DNA of 4,156 bases from a virus (lineage: Duplodnaviria > Heunggongvirae > Uroviricota > Caudoviricetes): the IMG/VR virus record IMGVR_UViG_2671180846_000017, positions 1-4,156 of that record; one strand, 5' to 3'. Positions within the stretch are counted from its first letter, which is position 1; the number at the start of each line of letters is the position of its first letter. Shown one piece after another: positions 1-4,156 of this stretch. The position numbers and the translations under genes were made by a program. The notes beneath the pieces are model-generated. The model searched no databases. It was not told the origin of the DNA and saw only the letters and a list, made by a program, of their open reading frames with translations.

Positions 1-266
1 TGGCGCTTATTGTTCGCCAGCAGCGGCTGAAATTAAGCCTGTCCGGAAGGCTGGCGATAAAGATTATTGCCGAGCCACCGGATAAGCGCCGCCGTGACCT
101 GGACAATATTCTGAAAGCGCCACTGGATGCGCTGACGCATGCGGGAGTGTTAATGGACGATGAGCAGTTTGATGAAATCAATATCGTTCGTGGTCAGCCA
201 GTATCTGGTGGACGTCTGGGGGTGAAGATTTACCCCATAATGCTTGAAGGGCTGGTCAAAAAATGA
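1..266 (+). CDS. rusA: RusA-family Holliday junction resolvase, C-terminal portion (5' end lies outside the window)
   Basis: Reading in the frame starting at nt 3 gives ...IKIIAEPPDKRRRDLDNILKAPLDALTHAGVLMDDEQFDEINIVRGQPVSGGRLGVKIYPIMLEGLVKK, ending at TGA 264-266. This aligns with the C-terminal half of E. coli RusA as recalled from memory ([32 protein letters not shown]...KGGRLELTI), including the acidic DLDN and DD catalytic positions. Its stop overlaps the start of the next gene (ATGA, 263-266), as expected for a rusA-Q pair in lambdoid phages. Confidence 0.85.
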   Translation, partial: ALIVRQQRLKLSLSGRLAIKIIAEPPDKRRRDLDNILKAPLDALTHAGVLMDDEQFDEINIVRGQPVSGGRLGVKIYPIMLEGLVKK

Positions 267-1084
267 AACTGGAAGATTTACCGAAATACTACTCCCCAAA
301 ATCCCCCGGCCTGACTGATGCATCGGCCTCAACGTCGAAAGATACGCTGAGTATCACTGATGTGATGGCCGCGCAGGGCATGACACAGAATTGGGCTGAG
401 ATGGGGTTTTCTGCGTTCCTTGGGAAAATGGGCATTAGTATGAATGACAGAGAGCGGGCAACAGAATTGCTGACAGAATATGCACTCAGTCGGTGTGATC
501 GCGTGGCGGCGTTAAGAAAACTCCCGGCAGAAATAAAACCGGCAGTGATGCGTATTATGGCTTCGTATGCGTTTGAAGATTATGCCCGTAGCGCGGCGAG
601 CAAAAAACAGTGCCCCTGTTGTCACGGAAAAAAATTTATTGAAAGCGAGGTTTTTACAAACAAGATCCAGTATCCGGATGGTAAGCCGCCAGTGTGGGCA
701 AAGTGCACAAAAGGCGTGTATCCGTCTTACTGGGAGGAATGGAAAAAAGTCAGGGAGGTGGTAAAAGTTGCCTGTCCGGAGTGTGGAGGGAAGGGGGAGG
801 TTTCCACCGCCTGTAAAGATTGTCGTGGGCGCGGTGTTGCCATTCATCGTGAAGAGTCGGTAAAACGTGGTATGCCTGTTATCAGAGACTGCCAGCGTTG
901 TGGTGGTCGTGGCTATGAAAGATTACCTTCAACGGAGGCATTTAATGCCATATGTAATGTAACCGATGCCATATCTCTTGATACATGGAAAAAAACAGTT
1001 AAACGTTTTTACGATACGCTGGTGGTGCAGTTTGATATTGAAGAAGCATGGGCAGAACAACAACTGAAAAAGGTGACCAGATAG
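263..1084 (+). CDS. Q: Late-gene antitermination protein Q (lambda Q family) with expanded Cys-rich zinc-binding region
   Basis: A 273-aa ORF that is collinear with lambda Q as recalled from memory: YYSPKSP vs FHSPKSP, TDVMAAQGM vs TDVMAAMGM, FLGK vs FCGK, YAFEDYARSAAS vs FAYADYCRSAAT, CQRCGGRGYERLPSTEAF vs CGRCKGVGYSRMPASAAY, TWKKTVKRFYDTLVVQ vs TWSRTVKPLYDALVVQ, and a C-terminal VTR in both. It sits immediately downstream of rusA and immediately upstream of a lambda-like pR'/qut. It is about 65 aa longer than lambda Q because of an insertion in the zinc-finger region. Confidence 0.85.
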   Translation: MKLEDLPKYYSPKSPGLTDASASTSKDTLSITDVMAAQGMTQNWAEMGFSAFLGKMGISMNDRERATELLTEYALSRCDRVAALRKLPAEIKPAVMRIMASYAFEDYARSAASKKQCPCCHGKKFIESEVFTNKIQYPDGKPPVWAKCTKGVYPSYWEEWKKVREVVKVACPECGGKGEVSTACKDCRGRGVAIHREESVKRGMPVIRDCQRCGGRGYERLPSTEAFNAICNVTDAISLDTWKKTVKRFYDTLVVQFDIEEAWAEQQLKKVTR

Positions 1085-1089
1085 CTTTG

Positions 1090-1129
1090 TTGATTTTTCC
1101 CGAATCTGTGGTAAATTTGCCCTAACGAT
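1090..1129 (+). promoter_or_regulatory. Late promoter pR' with Q-utilisation (qut) / sigma70-dependent promoter-proximal pause element
   Basis: -35-like TTGATT (1090-1095), 16-nt spacer, extended -10 TGgTAAATT (1109-1117). The segment GGTAAATTTG...AACGATGGG (1110-1132) closely matches lambda pR' (GGGTAAATTTGACTCAACGATGGG, from memory). By the same spacing the predicted transcription start is A1124, and the -10-like pause-inducing AACGAT lies at 1124-1129. It is positioned directly after the Q stop codon. Confidence 0.6.
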
Positions 1130-1164
1130 GGGCGTTTTATGCCTGACGTTAGAAGATTTTTTAC

Positions 1165-1188
1165 ACCCGTCGCCAGGCGGGTTTTTTT
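1165..1188 (+). terminator. Intrinsic (rho-independent) terminator, tR'-like, downstream of pR'
   Basis: GC-rich hairpin ACCCG (1165-1169) / CGGGT (1178-1182) with loop TCGCCAGG, followed by a run of seven T (1182-1188). It lies about 60 nt downstream of the predicted pR' start, matching the lambdoid arrangement in which Q-modified RNA polymerase reads through tR'. Confidence 0.6.
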
Positions 1189-1291
1189 ATGACTGAAATC
1201 ACGCCAGTACAGTAAACGCGCTGGTGGTTGTGAATACCGGTCTTTCAGCTTGCTGGCTTTTTCGACAAGAGTTATTGGTGTGTCACGTTAA

Positions 1292-1684
1292 CCGGAAAAA
1301 GGAAAGTTTGAGAAACGCGATCTGGCACAGGCGGTTATTAATGCTGCCTACCTGGTGGCCTGTGCAGATGGTGAATGTGAGGCTTCCTAGAAAGCGAAGA
1401 TCGAACAGGTACTGCGTAATCAGCCTGCGCTGTCCGCGTTTACGTCAGAAATTAATGCGATTAGCGCAACCATTATCGGTCAGCTGGATACGAACTTTAA
1501 AATTGGTCGTCGTGCGGCGTTACGTGAGATCGAGGATGTGAAACACGATACGCGTGAAGCGGAAGATGTGCTGGATGTGGCGGTGGCCATTGCGGAGGCA
1601 GACGGCGAAATTGAGCCGGAAGAGCGCAAGGTGCTGGAAGAGATTGCCGGTGTTCTGGGTCTTCGTCTGGAGAATCACCAGTGA
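1292..1684 (+). pseudogene. TerB-family (tellurite-resistance TerB-like) gene remnant: N-terminally truncated with an in-frame amber codon
   Basis: A single frame translates as PEKGKFEKRDLAQAVINAAYLVACADGECEAS*KAKIEQVLRNQPALSAFTSEINAISATIIGQLDTNFKIGRRAALREIEDVKHDTREAEDVLDVAVAIAEADGEIEPEERKVLEEIAGVLGLRLENHQ*. It carries two ADG-acidic TerB-type motifs and aligns with E. coli TerB from memory (KKFMQGTVAVCARIAVASDGVSSEEKQKMIGFL...AVAKSDGNFDDDEKSAVREIAIALGF). The TAG at 1388-1390 falls where TerB has Glu. The frame is closed by TAA at 1289-1291 with no ATG between that stop and the TAG, and the roughly 25 N-terminal residues expected upstream are absent from this frame. Confidence 0.55.
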
Positions 1685-1797
1685 CGGTAAAACTGCGCCT
1701 GGCTGTGGCTGCACTCCTGCTGTTTCTGGTGGTGATGGTGGATTTCACCAGCAGAATCATGTCGGTGCTGGCGGATGGGGTGCTGGTCTGCGGCATT
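1681..1797 (+). CDS. Small hydrophobic (signal-peptide or transmembrane) protein, N-terminal part only; 3' end lost in the N-gap
   Basis: GTG start at 1681 overlaps the TerB-remnant stop (GTGA, 1681-1684), with GGAG 8 nt upstream (1669-1672). Translation is MTVKLRLAVAALLLFLVVMVDFTSRIMSVLADGVLVCGI..., a basic N-terminus followed by a hydrophobic helix, using E. coli-preferred codons (CTG, GTG, GCG rich). The reading frame runs into the N run at 1798, so its length and C-terminus are unknown. Confidence 0.35.
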
Positions 1798-1847
1798 NNN
1801 NNNNNNNNNNNNNNNNNNNNNNNNNNNNNNNNNNNNNNNNNNNNNNN
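1798..1847. other. Run of 50 N (assembly gap or masked sequence of unknown true length)
   Basis: Directly visible: 50 consecutive N characters. The ORFs that the six-frame track shows crossing it (poly-X) are artefacts. Confidence 1.
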
Positions 1848-2012
1848 CAAAAGTGTTGTTTCTGTTTTTCTCAAACTATCATCGTTATCCCTTTATTTCC
1901 GGCTGCGCATGGCGTGGCCTTTTTTTACGACCAGCCACTGGCAGATGGCCATCCTGTAATTTGATTCCGGTTCCGGCTTTTTAACTCTGTTCCTGTACAC
2001 GGGAGAAATTCG

Positions 2013-3950
2013 ATGTCGATTAAACATTATGATGTTGTCAGGGCGGCGTCGCCGTCAGACCTTGCGGAAAAGCTGACACAAAAACTGAAGGAGGGGTGGC
2101 AGCCATTTGGCAGCCCGGTGGCCATCACGCCTTATACTCTGATGCAGGCCATTGCGGCGGAAGGTGATGTCACCACACCTGTGTTGGTGAAGCCGTCGGA
2201 TGGAGAAGGCACAGTAATCAGCGCCACCAGAGACCCGGAGTATTACTTTGTTGTGGTTCTGGCGGGGCAGTCAAACAGCATGGCATATGGTGAAGGCCTT
2301 CCGCTGCCGGAGACATATGACCGTCCGGACCCGCGCATTAAGCAGCTGGCGCGTCGCAGTACGGTGACACCGGGCGGTGTCGCCTGTAAATATAACGACA
2401 TCATTCCGGCGGACCATTGTCTGCATGATGTGCAGGACATGAGCCGCCTTAACCATCCGAAAGCGGACCTGTCAAAGGGGCAGTACGGAACCGTGGGGCA
2501 AGGGCTGCATATCGCCAAAAAATTGCTGCCGTTTATACCGGCGAATGCGGGCATTCTGCTGGTTCCGTGCTGTCGTGGTGGTTCAGCGTTCACCACCGGA
2601 GCCGATGGCACATACAGTGACGCGAGTGGTGCCTCGGAGAATTCAACCCGCTGGGGTGTGGACAAGCCGCTGTATAAGGACCTTATCGGTCGAACAAAAG
2701 CAGCACTGAAGAAGAATCCGAAAAATGTGCTGTTTGCCGTGGTGTGGATGCAGGGGGAATTTGATTTTGGCGGTACGCCGGCAAATCACGCAGCACAGTT
2801 TGGTGCGCTGGTTGATAAATTCCGTGCAGACCTGGCGGATATGGCAGGTCAGTGCGTCGGTGGCTCTGCTGGCGGTGTTCCCTGGATCTGTGGAGATACG
2901 ACGTATTTCTGGAAGCAGAAGAACGAATCCTCGTACCAGACGGTGTACGGCAGCTACAAAAACAAAACGGAAAAGAATATCCATTTCGTACCGTTCATGA
3001 CCGATGAGAACGGGGTGAATGTGCCGACGAACAAACCGGAAGAAGACCCGGACATTCCGGGTATCGGATATTACGGTTCGAAATGGCGTGACAGCTCAGC
3101 CACCTGGACGTCACAGGACAGGGCGAGCCATTTCAGCGCCTGGGCACGCCGTGGGATTATTTCCGACCGTCTGGCAACGGCGATTTTGCGCCATGCGGGA
3201 AGAGTGGCGCTAAACGCGGGGGCATCATCGACAGTATCAGAGGTGCGCCCGTCATCGCCTTCCGGTGCAGAAGCCACAGGCGTCACAACACTGCTCTCTT
3301 ACCTTGCCAGCGAGTCAGAGGGAAGCCTGAAAGTACAGGGATGGTCAGCCAGTGGCGGCAGGGCAGAAGTGGTCAGCGATGCGGAGGGAACCGGAGGTAA
3401 GGCAGTGAAGCTGACCAAGGAAGCCGGTAAAAGCAGCTGGGTGCTGGAGTACGCCGCGGGCAACGGTGCGGCTCTGTTACAGAAAGGGGGGCAGATTCGC
3501 TGCCGCTTTAAGGTTTCGGGAGCGCTGGCTGCGAACCAGTATGTTATGGCGTTTTACTGGCCGGTCTCTTCACTGCCACAGGGCGTTGCCCTGACCGGAG
3601 ACGGGGGGAATAACCTGCTGGCAGCGTTCTACATCCAGACAGATGCAAAAGACCTGAATGTGATGTACCACAATGCGAAAGTGGCGACAAACAACCTGAA
3701 ACTGGGAACCTTTGGCGCATTTGATAACGAATGGCATACGCTGGCTTTCCGCTTTGCCGGGAATAACAGCCTTCAGGTGACGCCGGTTATTGATGGTCAG
3801 GATGGCACACCGTTCACGCTGACGCAGTCACCGGTCAGTGCATTTGCGGCGGATAAACTGCATGTGACAGACATTACCAGGAATGCGACTTACCCGGTAC
3901 TGATAGACAGCATTGTGGTGGAAGTGAACAGCACAGACACTGCGGCATGA
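2013..3950 (+). CDS. nanS-p: Prophage-encoded sialate O-acetylesterase, NanS-p type (DUF1737 N-terminal domain + SASA/SGNH esterase domain + C-terminal putative carbohydrate-binding domain)
   Basis: A 645-aa ORF with SD GGGAG 7 nt upstream of the ATG. It has the GQSNS motif (aa 85-89; Ser87 codon at 2271-2273) and WMQGEFD (aa 245-251), both characteristic of the sialate O-acetylesterase (SASA / YjhS-NanS) family. The N-terminal approximately 60 aa resemble a DUF1737-type domain. Size and three-part architecture match the NanS-p esterases found between the stx locus and the lysis genes of lambdoid/Stx prophages. It ends with a double stop, TGA TAA (3948-3953). Confidence 0.85.
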   Translation: MSIKHYDVVRAASPSDLAEKLTQKLKEGWQPFGSPVAITPYTLMQAIAAEGDVTTPVLVKPSDGEGTVISATRDPEYYFVVVLAGQSNSMAYGEGLPLPETYDRPDPRIKQLARRSTVTPGGVACKYNDIIPADHCLHDVQDMSRLNHPKADLSKGQYGTVGQGLHIAKKLLPFIPANAGILLVPCCRGGSAFTTGADGTYSDASGASENSTRWGVDKPLYKDLIGRTKAALKKNPKNVLFAVVWMQGEFDFGGTPANHAAQFGALVDKFRADLADMAGQCVGGSAGGVPWICGDTTYFWKQKNESSYQTVYGSYKNKTEKNIHFVPFMTDENGVNVPTNKPEEDPDIPGIGYYGSKWRDSSATWTSQDRASHFSAWARRGIISDRLATAILRHAGRVALNAGASSTVSEVRPSSPSGAEATGVTTLLSYLASESEGSLKVQGWSASGGRAEVVSDAEGTGGKAVKLTKEAGKSSWVLEYAAGNGAALLQKGGQIRCRFKVSGALAANQYVMAFYWPVSSLPQGVALTGDGGNNLLAAFYIQTDAKDLNVMYHNAKVATNNLKLGTFGAFDNEWHTLAFRFAGNNSLQVTPVIDGQDGTPFTLTQSPVSAFAADKLHVTDITRNATYPVLIDSIVVEVNSTDTAA

Positions 3951-3951
3951 T

Positions 3952-3987
3952 AAAAAAACCGCCAGCGACAGGAATGGACGCTGGCGG
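3952..3987 (-). terminator. Perfect 9-bp GC-rich hairpin with a U-tract on the minus strand only; candidate intrinsic terminator for leftward transcription
   Basis: CCGCCAGCG (3959-3967) and CGCTGGCGG (3979-3987) are exact reverse complements around an 11-nt loop. On the + strand the hairpin is preceded by A7 (3952-3958) and followed by TGGTGATACC with no T-tract. On the - strand it is therefore followed by U7, the canonical intrinsic-terminator layout. Confidence 0.4.
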
Positions 3988-4085
3988 TGGTGATACCTAT
4001 GGAGAAAAAATAAAGGAACGATACTTTCGTACTCTGGTTTTTTAATGAAAACAGTTCTTATTGTCAACAATAACGGAAAGAAATT

Positions 4086-4156
4086 ATGACATTTCTGAAC
4101 CAGTTAATGCTGTACTTCTGTACGGTGGTCTGTGTGCTGTATCTCCTTTCGGGTGG
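4086..4156 (+). CDS. Small membrane protein, N-terminal part only (window ends); probable lysis holin by position
   Basis: ATG at 4086 with a weak SD (GGAA, 4075-4078). Translation MTFLNQLMLYFCTVVCVLYLLSG... is strongly hydrophobic. It sits immediately downstream of nanS-p, where lambdoid phages place the holin gene S. The holin assignment is positional; I do not recognise the sequence itself. Confidence 0.45.
   Translation, partial: MTFLNQLMLYFCTVVCVLYLLSG

Follow-up and report, generated by a model that had tools for sequence, protein, structure and literature searches.

A small ORF cut by an assembly gap in an Escherichia coli lambdoid prophage belongs to the DUF3927/TciB family and to a module with the TerB family gene upstream

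A short open reading frame (ORF) that begins on the stop codon of a TerB gene remnant and runs into an assembly gap raises the question of what it encodes, whether it belongs together with its upstream neighbor, and what can be said of the part that the gap conceals. The window, by which we mean the whole stretch of 4,156 bases that was analyzed, is the start of the late region of an E. coli lambdoid prophage. A first-pass annotation of the same DNA had described the ORF as a small hydrophobic partner that arrived with a TerB-like gene as one module, and had not recognized its product. Here, we place the ORF in its genomic context, identify its family, and weigh what the family and the neighboring gene suggest about its function.

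The ORF lies downstream of Q, at the site of stxAB in Stx phages

The window opens on the 3' end of a RusA gene (up to position 266), followed on the + strand by the gene for antiterminator Q (263 to 1084; Pfam Antiterm PF03589, 168 bits), which is annotated as an antitermination protein in the closely related locus L001. A terminator scan found a hairpin with a T-run 3' of Q on the + strand (1165 to 1182), and going by its position after Q this element is likely tR'. Next on the + strand are a TerB family pseudogene, tciA (1304 to 1684), and the ORF in question, tciB (1681 to 1797), which stops at an assembly gap of 50 N without strand (1798 to 1847). The first bases past the gap are the low-confidence 3' tail of a + strand match to STnc100 (1848 to 1876), placed by the Rfam match in the related locus L024. 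Further along the + strand is a gene for a prophage carbohydrate esterase with DUF1737, SASA and DUF6645 matches in Pfam (2013 to 3950), which the annotations of L003 and L024 call a SASA family carbohydrate esterase, and a DUF1378 gene starts at 4086.

If the hairpin is tR', tciA and tciB would belong to the Q-dependent late transcript. On the + strand, a promoter scan detected no sigma-70-like site between Q or its terminator and the tciB ORF, and positions 1092 to 1130 seem to resemble the -10 and pause region of lambda pR'. The first-pass annotation proposed that the ORF is expressed by read-through from pR', and this anatomy of Q, terminator and lack of a + strand promoter makes the proposal plausible. 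In Stx phages the slot after Q and the terminator holds stxAB, whereas here it holds the tciA-tciB module; in prophages of the window's type, tciB sits in this slot 5' of STnc100.

The reading frame is open, conserved and under selection

The ORF begins with a GTG (1681 to 1683) that overlaps the TGA (1682 to 1684) closing the frame of the TerB remnant, giving GTGA at 1681 to 1684. A Shine-Dalgarno-like GGAG lies on the + strand within the last tciA codons, 8 nt 5' of the GTG (1669 to 1672). From the GTG, 39 codons remain open, VTVKLRLAVAALLLFLVVMVDFTSRIMSVLADGVLVCGI, until the run of N. Lys4 and Arg6 precede a hydrophobic stretch at residues 7 to 20, and the codons are E. coli-like as far as 39 of them can show, with CTG for seven of eight leucines, GTG for seven of nine valines and one rare AGA. 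The overlapping start with its Shine-Dalgarno sequence, the basic N-terminus leading into a hydrophobic helix and the codon usage are thus as they had been described from the sequence before.

Judged by its length, a 39-codon frame is within the reach of chance (P about 0.14 at local composition), and it is homology and selection that mark this one as a real gene. Nei-Gojobori dN/dS over codons 2 to 48 of 18 loci had a median of 0.24 in frame versus 0.87 and 2.15 in the shifted frames, and by this measure the tciB frame is under purifying selection. The ATG starts of TciB from phages P1 and Pollock fall in the same alignment column as the window's GTG. Other family members keep a GGA at the position of the GGAG in their own junctions, where it also codes for a conserved Leu-Glu or Leu-Asp of TciA. 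The length probability is what would favor an untranslated frame left open by accident, but the conserved start position, the selection specific to this frame and the Pfam and PHROG matches given below leave that explanation practically no credence, and we ruled it out.

The ORF product is a DUF3927/TciB family protein

Although the product had been reported as unfamiliar, it is a homologue of phage P1 TciB and a member of both DUF3927 and PHROG 1470. The 39-residue fragment matches Pfam DUF3927 (PF13064) at 43.4 bits (E 3.4e-11, profile positions 2 to 37 of 53), against a curated gathering threshold of 25 bits. Running the search on the complete product, a step that the first-pass annotation had suggested, was made possible by identical relatives that supply the missing residues: the completed 55-residue protein scores 62.3 bits on DUF3927, and this completed sequence matches PHROG 1470, ‘TciB-like inhibition of cell division or resistance to colicin’, at E 4e-30, with residues 1 to 54 aligned to profile positions 1 to 54 of 54.

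Nucleotide comparisons lead to the same family. By Megablast, positions 1200 to 1797 recur with 100% identity in numerous complete genomes of STEC, in which the ORF is annotated as a DUF3927 family protein, and the window's 117 nt of tciB match the genes so annotated in L001, L003 and L004 at 100%. In O26:H11 strain 11368, tciB is a gene of 168 nt with a 55-residue product, MTVKLRLAVAALLLFLVVMVDFTSRIMSVLADGVLVCGIVVLLWPVIKRNSLHNA, which is WP_000216636.1 (NC_013361.1 1888254-1888421). This gene is identical to the window at all 117 readable nucleotides, has the same GTGA overlap with a TerB family pseudogene and has the same Q upstream; no difference between the two is detectable, the window lacking the last 51 nt owing to the gap. 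In phage JLK-2012, a pair of identical type is annotated tciA/tciB.

The residues invariant in the family and common to P1 TciB are K4, D21, F22, S24, L30, D32, G33, L35, V36, P45 and K48. All nine of the N-terminal ones, K4 through V36, are encoded in codons 1 to 39 of the window. The remaining two, P45 and K48, fall at gap positions; they are present in L001, L003 and L024, and the L004 and L005 alleles stop at codon 44.

The family has few members and a limited spread. Of 1.84 billion cluster representatives, a profile search matched 116, nearly all of 20 to 90 residues, and a word-indexed search returned 224, of which those with a source name were almost all from E. coli. A four-sequence alignment used as the query of a genome contig scan recovered 14 loci, and the same scan with Pollock TciB as sole query returned none. 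NCBIfam gave no match to TciB. Neither did the known anti-phage defense models of PADLOC, on which TciA matched PDC-S48 marginally (E 0.0035).

Judged by sequence, then, the ORF is one already known: it belongs to the catalogued family DUF3927/TciB, whose function is assigned by homology only, and it shows no departure from that family. With good confidence we read it as the first 117 nt of tciB, encoding a 55-residue, very hydrophobic DUF3927 protein; together with tciA, whose product is a soluble TerB-domain protein, it makes up a cargo module of two genes. Real as the finding is, it is an ordinary one, and its effect is mainly a tidying of annotation, in which an ‘unknown’ ORF becomes DUF3927/TciB.

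The TerB family gene upstream is a pseudogene

The first-pass annotation called the upstream gene a TerB remnant, which a 5' deletion, an internal stop and a RefSeq pseudogene call all bear out. Homology to intact tciA copies starts at position 1303 of the window, with codons 1 to 17 missing, and an in-frame TAG stands at 1388 to 1390, where intact copies have GAG. From position 1303 on, the pseudogene is 95.8% identical to the intact tciA of L003. DNA identical to the window's tciA is annotated in RefSeq as a TerB family pseudogene with an internal stop.

What tciA encodes where it is whole can be read from the intact copies. Intact TciA matches Pfam TerB (PF05099) at 60 bits and aligns with the solved TerB structure PDB 2JXU at E 4e-8. 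It also gives weak, sub-cut-off matches to DjlA (NF006948, E 1e-6) and to DUF533, the family of YebE (E 3e-5). No part of TciA is a hydrophobic segment. Because tciA is dead in this prophage, whatever translational coupling it had with tciB is lost, and translation of tciB would rely on its own GGAG.

tciA and tciB are linked stop to start across diverse phages

Among 22 related loci, 19 have a TerB family ORF that ends exactly at the start of tciB, through junctions of GTGA, TGATG or TAATG. Since this stop/start linkage is shared so widely, the ORF and the TerB gene can be taken as inherited in one module, as the first-pass annotation had supposed from a single junction; its call for a search for conserved synteny of the two genes in other prophages finds its answer in the same 19 loci. 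The module occurs in P1 (a myovirus phage-plasmid), in Pollock (a virulent N4-like podovirus), in Fostie and other lambdoid phages, and in prophages of Pseudescherichia, Enterobacter, Franconibacter, Rosenbergiella, Buttiauxella and Pantoea. Its carriers thus extend from P1-like phage-plasmids through many lambdoid prophages of pathogenic E. coli to virulent N4-like phages.

Three loci depart from the pattern. In phage 434, TciB follows a 247-residue membrane protein with no Pfam or TerB match. In the other two, L017 and L022, tciA is missing and tciB is degraded as well. Pfam assigned no family to the neighbors of TciB in phages 434, P1 (TciC), Pollock and Fostie, and no conserved third component emerged. 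No true natural fusion of TerB to DUF3927 was found among the 116 cluster-representative matches. The three longer matches were considered as fusions and rejected: P0128 is a phosphatase chimera, P0173 an ABC-ATPase chimera, and P0168 a read-through of a frameshifted tciA/tciB.

Going by homology and gene order, the module here is tciA-tciB, already named from phage P1. Lobocka et al. 2004 (J Bacteriol 186:7032) reportedly gave the names tciA-tciB-tciC in that phage, where the three form a run of abutting genes and the record notes give their function ‘by homology’. P1 TciB (YP_006541.1) shares its Pfam and PHROG family with the window's protein, is 50% identical to it, has 54 rather than 55 residues and carries the same invariant motif, and its start likewise abuts the stop of a TerB family gene. 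The two modules differ in that P1 has the third small gene, tciC, which the window lacks; that the module is flanked by tRNA genes and ban in P1, whereas the window's lies after Q; and that tciA is intact in P1 but a pseudogene here. In a genome-wide CRISPRi screen, P1 tciA, tciB and tciC were non-essential (PMC10695390). The genome note on Pollock calls the role of TciA in a lytic phage unknown and derives the name from TerB, encoded in the ter cluster of R478 (PMC4319500).

Complete genomes indicate what the gap hides

That the ORF is cut by the gap, as first described, is an effect of the assembly alone, the relatives encoding 55 residues. In L003 (strain OkiPb01713) and L024 (strain 03_3013), both flanks of the gap are contiguous, with exactly 199 nt between them in place of the 50 N, and these 199 nt are identical at 196 positions. 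They comprise tciB codons 40 to 55 with a TGA, a short spacer and the core of the STnc100 sRNA. The sequence expected in the gap from these relatives is GTGGTATTGCTGTGGCCGGTGATAAAAAGAAACAGCCTGCATAATGCTTGA, followed by STnc100. In the gap region of the relatives, STnc100 (Rfam RF02076) scores 103 to 105 bits against a gathering score of 47; the match spans L024 2804 to 2976, and L024 position 2948 corresponds to window position 1848. The truncation of the ORF is thus an assembly artifact of a multi-copy prophage segment, and a known sRNA is concealed along with the end of tciB.

The sequences left and right of the gap could in principle come from different, similar prophages, joined wrongly in scaffolding, which would make the downstream context foreign to the ORF. 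Positions 1 to 1797 are 99.94% identical to L001, whereas the right half is 71% identical to L001 versus 99.4% to L003, and genomes that carry this type of tciB have it at six places in the median, which is a typical cause of contig breaks and likely the cause of this one. However, 644 complete genomes have one place that covers at least 80% of positions 1250 to 2150, and in the top-ranked places both gap flanks are joined, as two segments separated by about 1,050 nt, which makes the scaffold join plausible. L024, moreover, shares the tciA pseudogene and the esterase type of the window, and has an intact tciB and the spacer of 199 nt between them. On this evidence we consider a mis-join improbable.

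The hidden part of tciB contains the one position at which close relatives were seen to be recurrently damaged. The only recurrent lesion among them, in L004 and L005, is a TGG to TAG change at codon 44, which yields a 43-residue allele. Over the first 117 nt, L004 is identical to the window and L005 98% identical, and both carry the stop. Of 701 E. coli records, 93 hold exact copies of the TAG allele and 595 the intact one. Codon 44 lies inside the gap, so the intactness of the window's tciB cannot be read from the window, and the earlier statement that the ORF has no lesion does not follow for this copy. More likely than not, tciB is intact beyond the gap. Since its tciA is dead and the end of its tciB cannot be read, this window is ill suited to a study of tciAB function.

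A lesion-free tciB would not in itself signal selection. The segment of pseudogene and tciB is 99 to 100% identical in 208 records, and the absence of lesions is accounted for by this recency. The window's TciB would be an orphan beside a tciA pseudogene, made solely from its own GGAG and GTG on late transcripts that depend on Q. Rather than a working unit, it is probably a leftover, recent enough not to have decayed yet.

TciB might instead be a stand-alone small membrane effector, acting in superinfection exclusion, membrane protection or toxicity and selected here in spite of the dead tciA. An intact 55-residue allele does stand beside the tciA pseudogene in several complete genomes (L001 and L024 among them), phage 434 has TciB without a TerB gene, and the ORF has its own GGAG. 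Against this, the near-identity of the 208 records has allowed too little time for decay, so that intactness says little; truncated 43-residue alleles occur in the same background (L004); and where tciA is missing, in L017 and L022, tciB is degraded too. Taken together, these points make such an effector unlikely, if not negligibly so. A bolder form, to which we give slightly less weight still, holds that TciB is self-sufficient, that each lambdoid prophage of an STEC genome contributes one of its roughly six copies, that it has been retained where tciA was lost, and that it alters the behavior of the inner membrane during prophage induction. If that were true, it might exclude superinfecting phages or pore-forming colicins, or tune lysis or Stx release, all from the cargo slot in which Stx phages hold stxAB. 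We favor the reading of the window's TciB as an orphaned half of the tciA-tciB module, and consider below how the whole module might work.

TciB may hold TciA at the inner membrane

The first-pass annotation inferred a small membrane-type product, and the completed protein agrees with it. TciB has a GRAVY of 1.43, with hydropathy peaks at about residues 7 to 20 and 33 to 46, and charges at the ends and in the middle alone (K4 and R6; D21, R25 and D32; K48 and R49). The invariant residues in and around the middle segment read D-F-T/S-S ... L-x-D-G-x-L-V. AlphaFold2 modeled TciB as a single continuous helix (residues 3 to 54, pLDDT 89) rather than a hairpin.

Such a profile also invites a comparison with holins. 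TciB has the size, the two hydrophobic segments and the charged C-terminus of a holin-, antiholin- or pinholin-like protein of lysis timing, and in lambdoid phages it lies between Q and the lysis cassette. Yet no holin family was matched in Pfam or PHROGs, a separate annotated holin is encoded downstream in these prophages, the gene in P1 and Pollock lies outside the lysis cassette and is tied to tciA, and tciB is dispensable in P1. A lysis-timing role therefore seems very improbable.

We have just as little confidence that the N-terminal helix is a cleaved signal peptide from which a short peptide is exported. A basic n-region followed by a hydrophobic h-region would suit that idea, and the record of the P7 homologue annotates a sig_peptide. 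However, at 39 of 54 residues the P7 feature is implausibly long; it is a computed annotation, which we judge an artifact. The segment at residues 33 to 46 is also as hydrophobic as the first, which fits retention in the membrane, and the most conserved residues lie between and within both hydrophobic segments.

We tentatively prefer a mechanism in which TciB, in the inner membrane, tethers TciA, and the pair acts in lytic growth, a proposal built by analogy that we rate at somewhat below even. TciB would insert in the inner membrane via segments at about residues 7 to 20 and 33 to 46, with K4 and R6, and K48 and R49, on the cytoplasmic side, probably as a hairpin with both termini inside. Coupled translation would give TciB in a fixed ratio with TciA, and TciB would serve as the membrane anchor or partner that places the TerB-fold TciA at the membrane. 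The pair may then act in lytic growth on membrane-related stress or exclusion. We counted against this mechanism the single helix in the AlphaFold2 model, the lack of a TerB-DUF3927 fusion among the 116 cluster-representative matches, the occurrence of TciB without TciA in phage 434, and the non-essentiality in P1.

The analogy draws on known TerB-like proteins. In DjlA, a TerB-like domain comes directly after a single transmembrane helix (bioRxiv 10.1101/2024.08.29.610257), and going by DjlA and YebE (DUF533), attachment to the inner membrane is common for TerB-like domains. In those two proteins the anchor is part of the same polypeptide as the TerB-like domain, whereas here we infer that TciB would provide it in trans. 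A parallel in gene arrangement is TerB-TerC of the ter operon of IncHI2 plasmid R478, which confers resistance to tellurite, phage and colicin: as proposed here, a soluble TerB-fold protein and an integral membrane protein are encoded together. TerC differs in that it is large, crosses the membrane several times and shares no sequence similarity with TciB, and the other ter genes, terZ, A, D, E and F, are absent here.

As to when the pair would act, the position after Q and the terminator and the presence of the module in virulent phages point to lytic growth. In a P1vir transcriptome preprint, induction of tciA, tciB and tciC was altered in a Δhfq host, which indicates that the genes are at least transcribed in lytic growth. 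We counted both the carriage by virulent N4-like phages and this change of the P1 transcripts during P1vir infection in favor of a lytic role.

Loss of the conserved TciA N-terminus

The window lacks 1,549 bp that strain OkiPb01713 (L003) has at 1506-3054, and the junction of this deletion lies at window 1303-1305 with an overlap of 3 nt. Lost are a 65-aa ORF, an HTH-domain gene, three tRNA genes with anticodons CAT, TCG and TCT, and codons 1-17 of the TerB-family gene tciA, which persists in the window as a pseudogene. The portion missing from this pseudogene is exactly the conserved TciA N-terminus, M(F/L)GI(F/L)KKK, a short, basic, amphipathic-looking segment that is kept from P1 to lambdoid phages. 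TciA of the N4-like phage Pollock has a longer N-terminal variant, MGLFGFGKKK. The loci compared are L003 3005-3060, L006 1316-1370 and L008 1291-1360.

The C-terminal third of the pseudogene holds a plus-strand ORF of 48 codons (1538-1684), with an SD-like GAGG just 2 nt from its GTG start. PHROG 3920 is a family of 48 residues whose match is confined to this C-terminal fragment, indicating that such fragments have been annotated as genes in phage records.

Sequence flanking and concealed by the assembly gap

The left part of the window (1-1797) is 99.94% identical to the E. coli O26:H11 11368 prophage (L001), while the right part (1848-4156) is 99.4% identical to L003 and only 71% identical to the O26:H11 prophage. 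The window is a mosaic. Despite this pattern, both gap flanks are found contiguously in hundreds of complete genomes.

The gap also conceals the core of a known prophage sRNA, STnc100 (Rfam RF02076). The sRNA is matched with 103-105 bits at 3605-3777 in L003 and at 2804-2976 in strain 03_3013 (L024); its place in the window is 1798-1876, comprising the gap and the 29 nt that follow it, and here the match shows only as a weak 3' tail. STnc100 is followed in the O26:H11 prophage by AgvB on the opposite strand.

The slot that holds tciA-tciB, which takes up all of window 1085-2012 and corresponds to L003 1285-3914, is the stxAB slot of Stx phages. Its order runs from Q through a terminator, tRNA genes where present (Ile/Arg/Arg), cargo, STnc100 and a nanS-p-type esterase to the lysis genes. 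For stx2, STnc100 has been reported 75 nt downstream (PMC12370729).

Alleles, copy number and partners of tciB

The DUF3927 gene tciB has a recurrent nonsense allele, TGG to TAG at codon 44, seen in two close relatives of the window (L004 2010-2012; L005) and yielding a 43-aa product (WP_001344632.1); the equivalent position falls inside the window's gap. Among 701 E. coli records, 93 contain an exact copy of the TAG allele and 595 have the intact one. Among complete E. coli genomes, the window's tciB type is found at a median of 6 and a maximum of 10 places per carrying genome, presumably one per lambdoid prophage.

In phage 434 (L007 1612-2844), TciB is preceded not by a TerB gene but by a 247-aa predicted membrane protein, for which a Pfam search returned no match; a membrane protein of 62 aa comes after it. 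DUF3927 thus seems to have another set of partners in this phage.

Other signals in the window

Positions 1092-1130 (TTGATT...GGTAAATTTGCCCTAACGATGGGCG) bear some resemblance to the -10 of lambda pR' (TAAATT) and to AACGAT, the sigma-70 pause element in the qut region; a consensus promoter scan made no call there. Directly past the esterase stop, the minus strand (3950-4027) weakly matches Esr41, an sRNA of EHEC; the score of 28 bits (E 0.086) is far below the gathering score of 102, and the match is probably not significant. A second terminator-like hairpin and T-run (GGCTGCGCATGGCGTGGCC TTTTTTT) occupies 1901-1919 on the plus strand, past the gap and ahead of the esterase gene, and in the equivalent region of L003 and L024 RefSeq annotates a fragmentary 'hypothetical protein' pseudogene on the minus strand.
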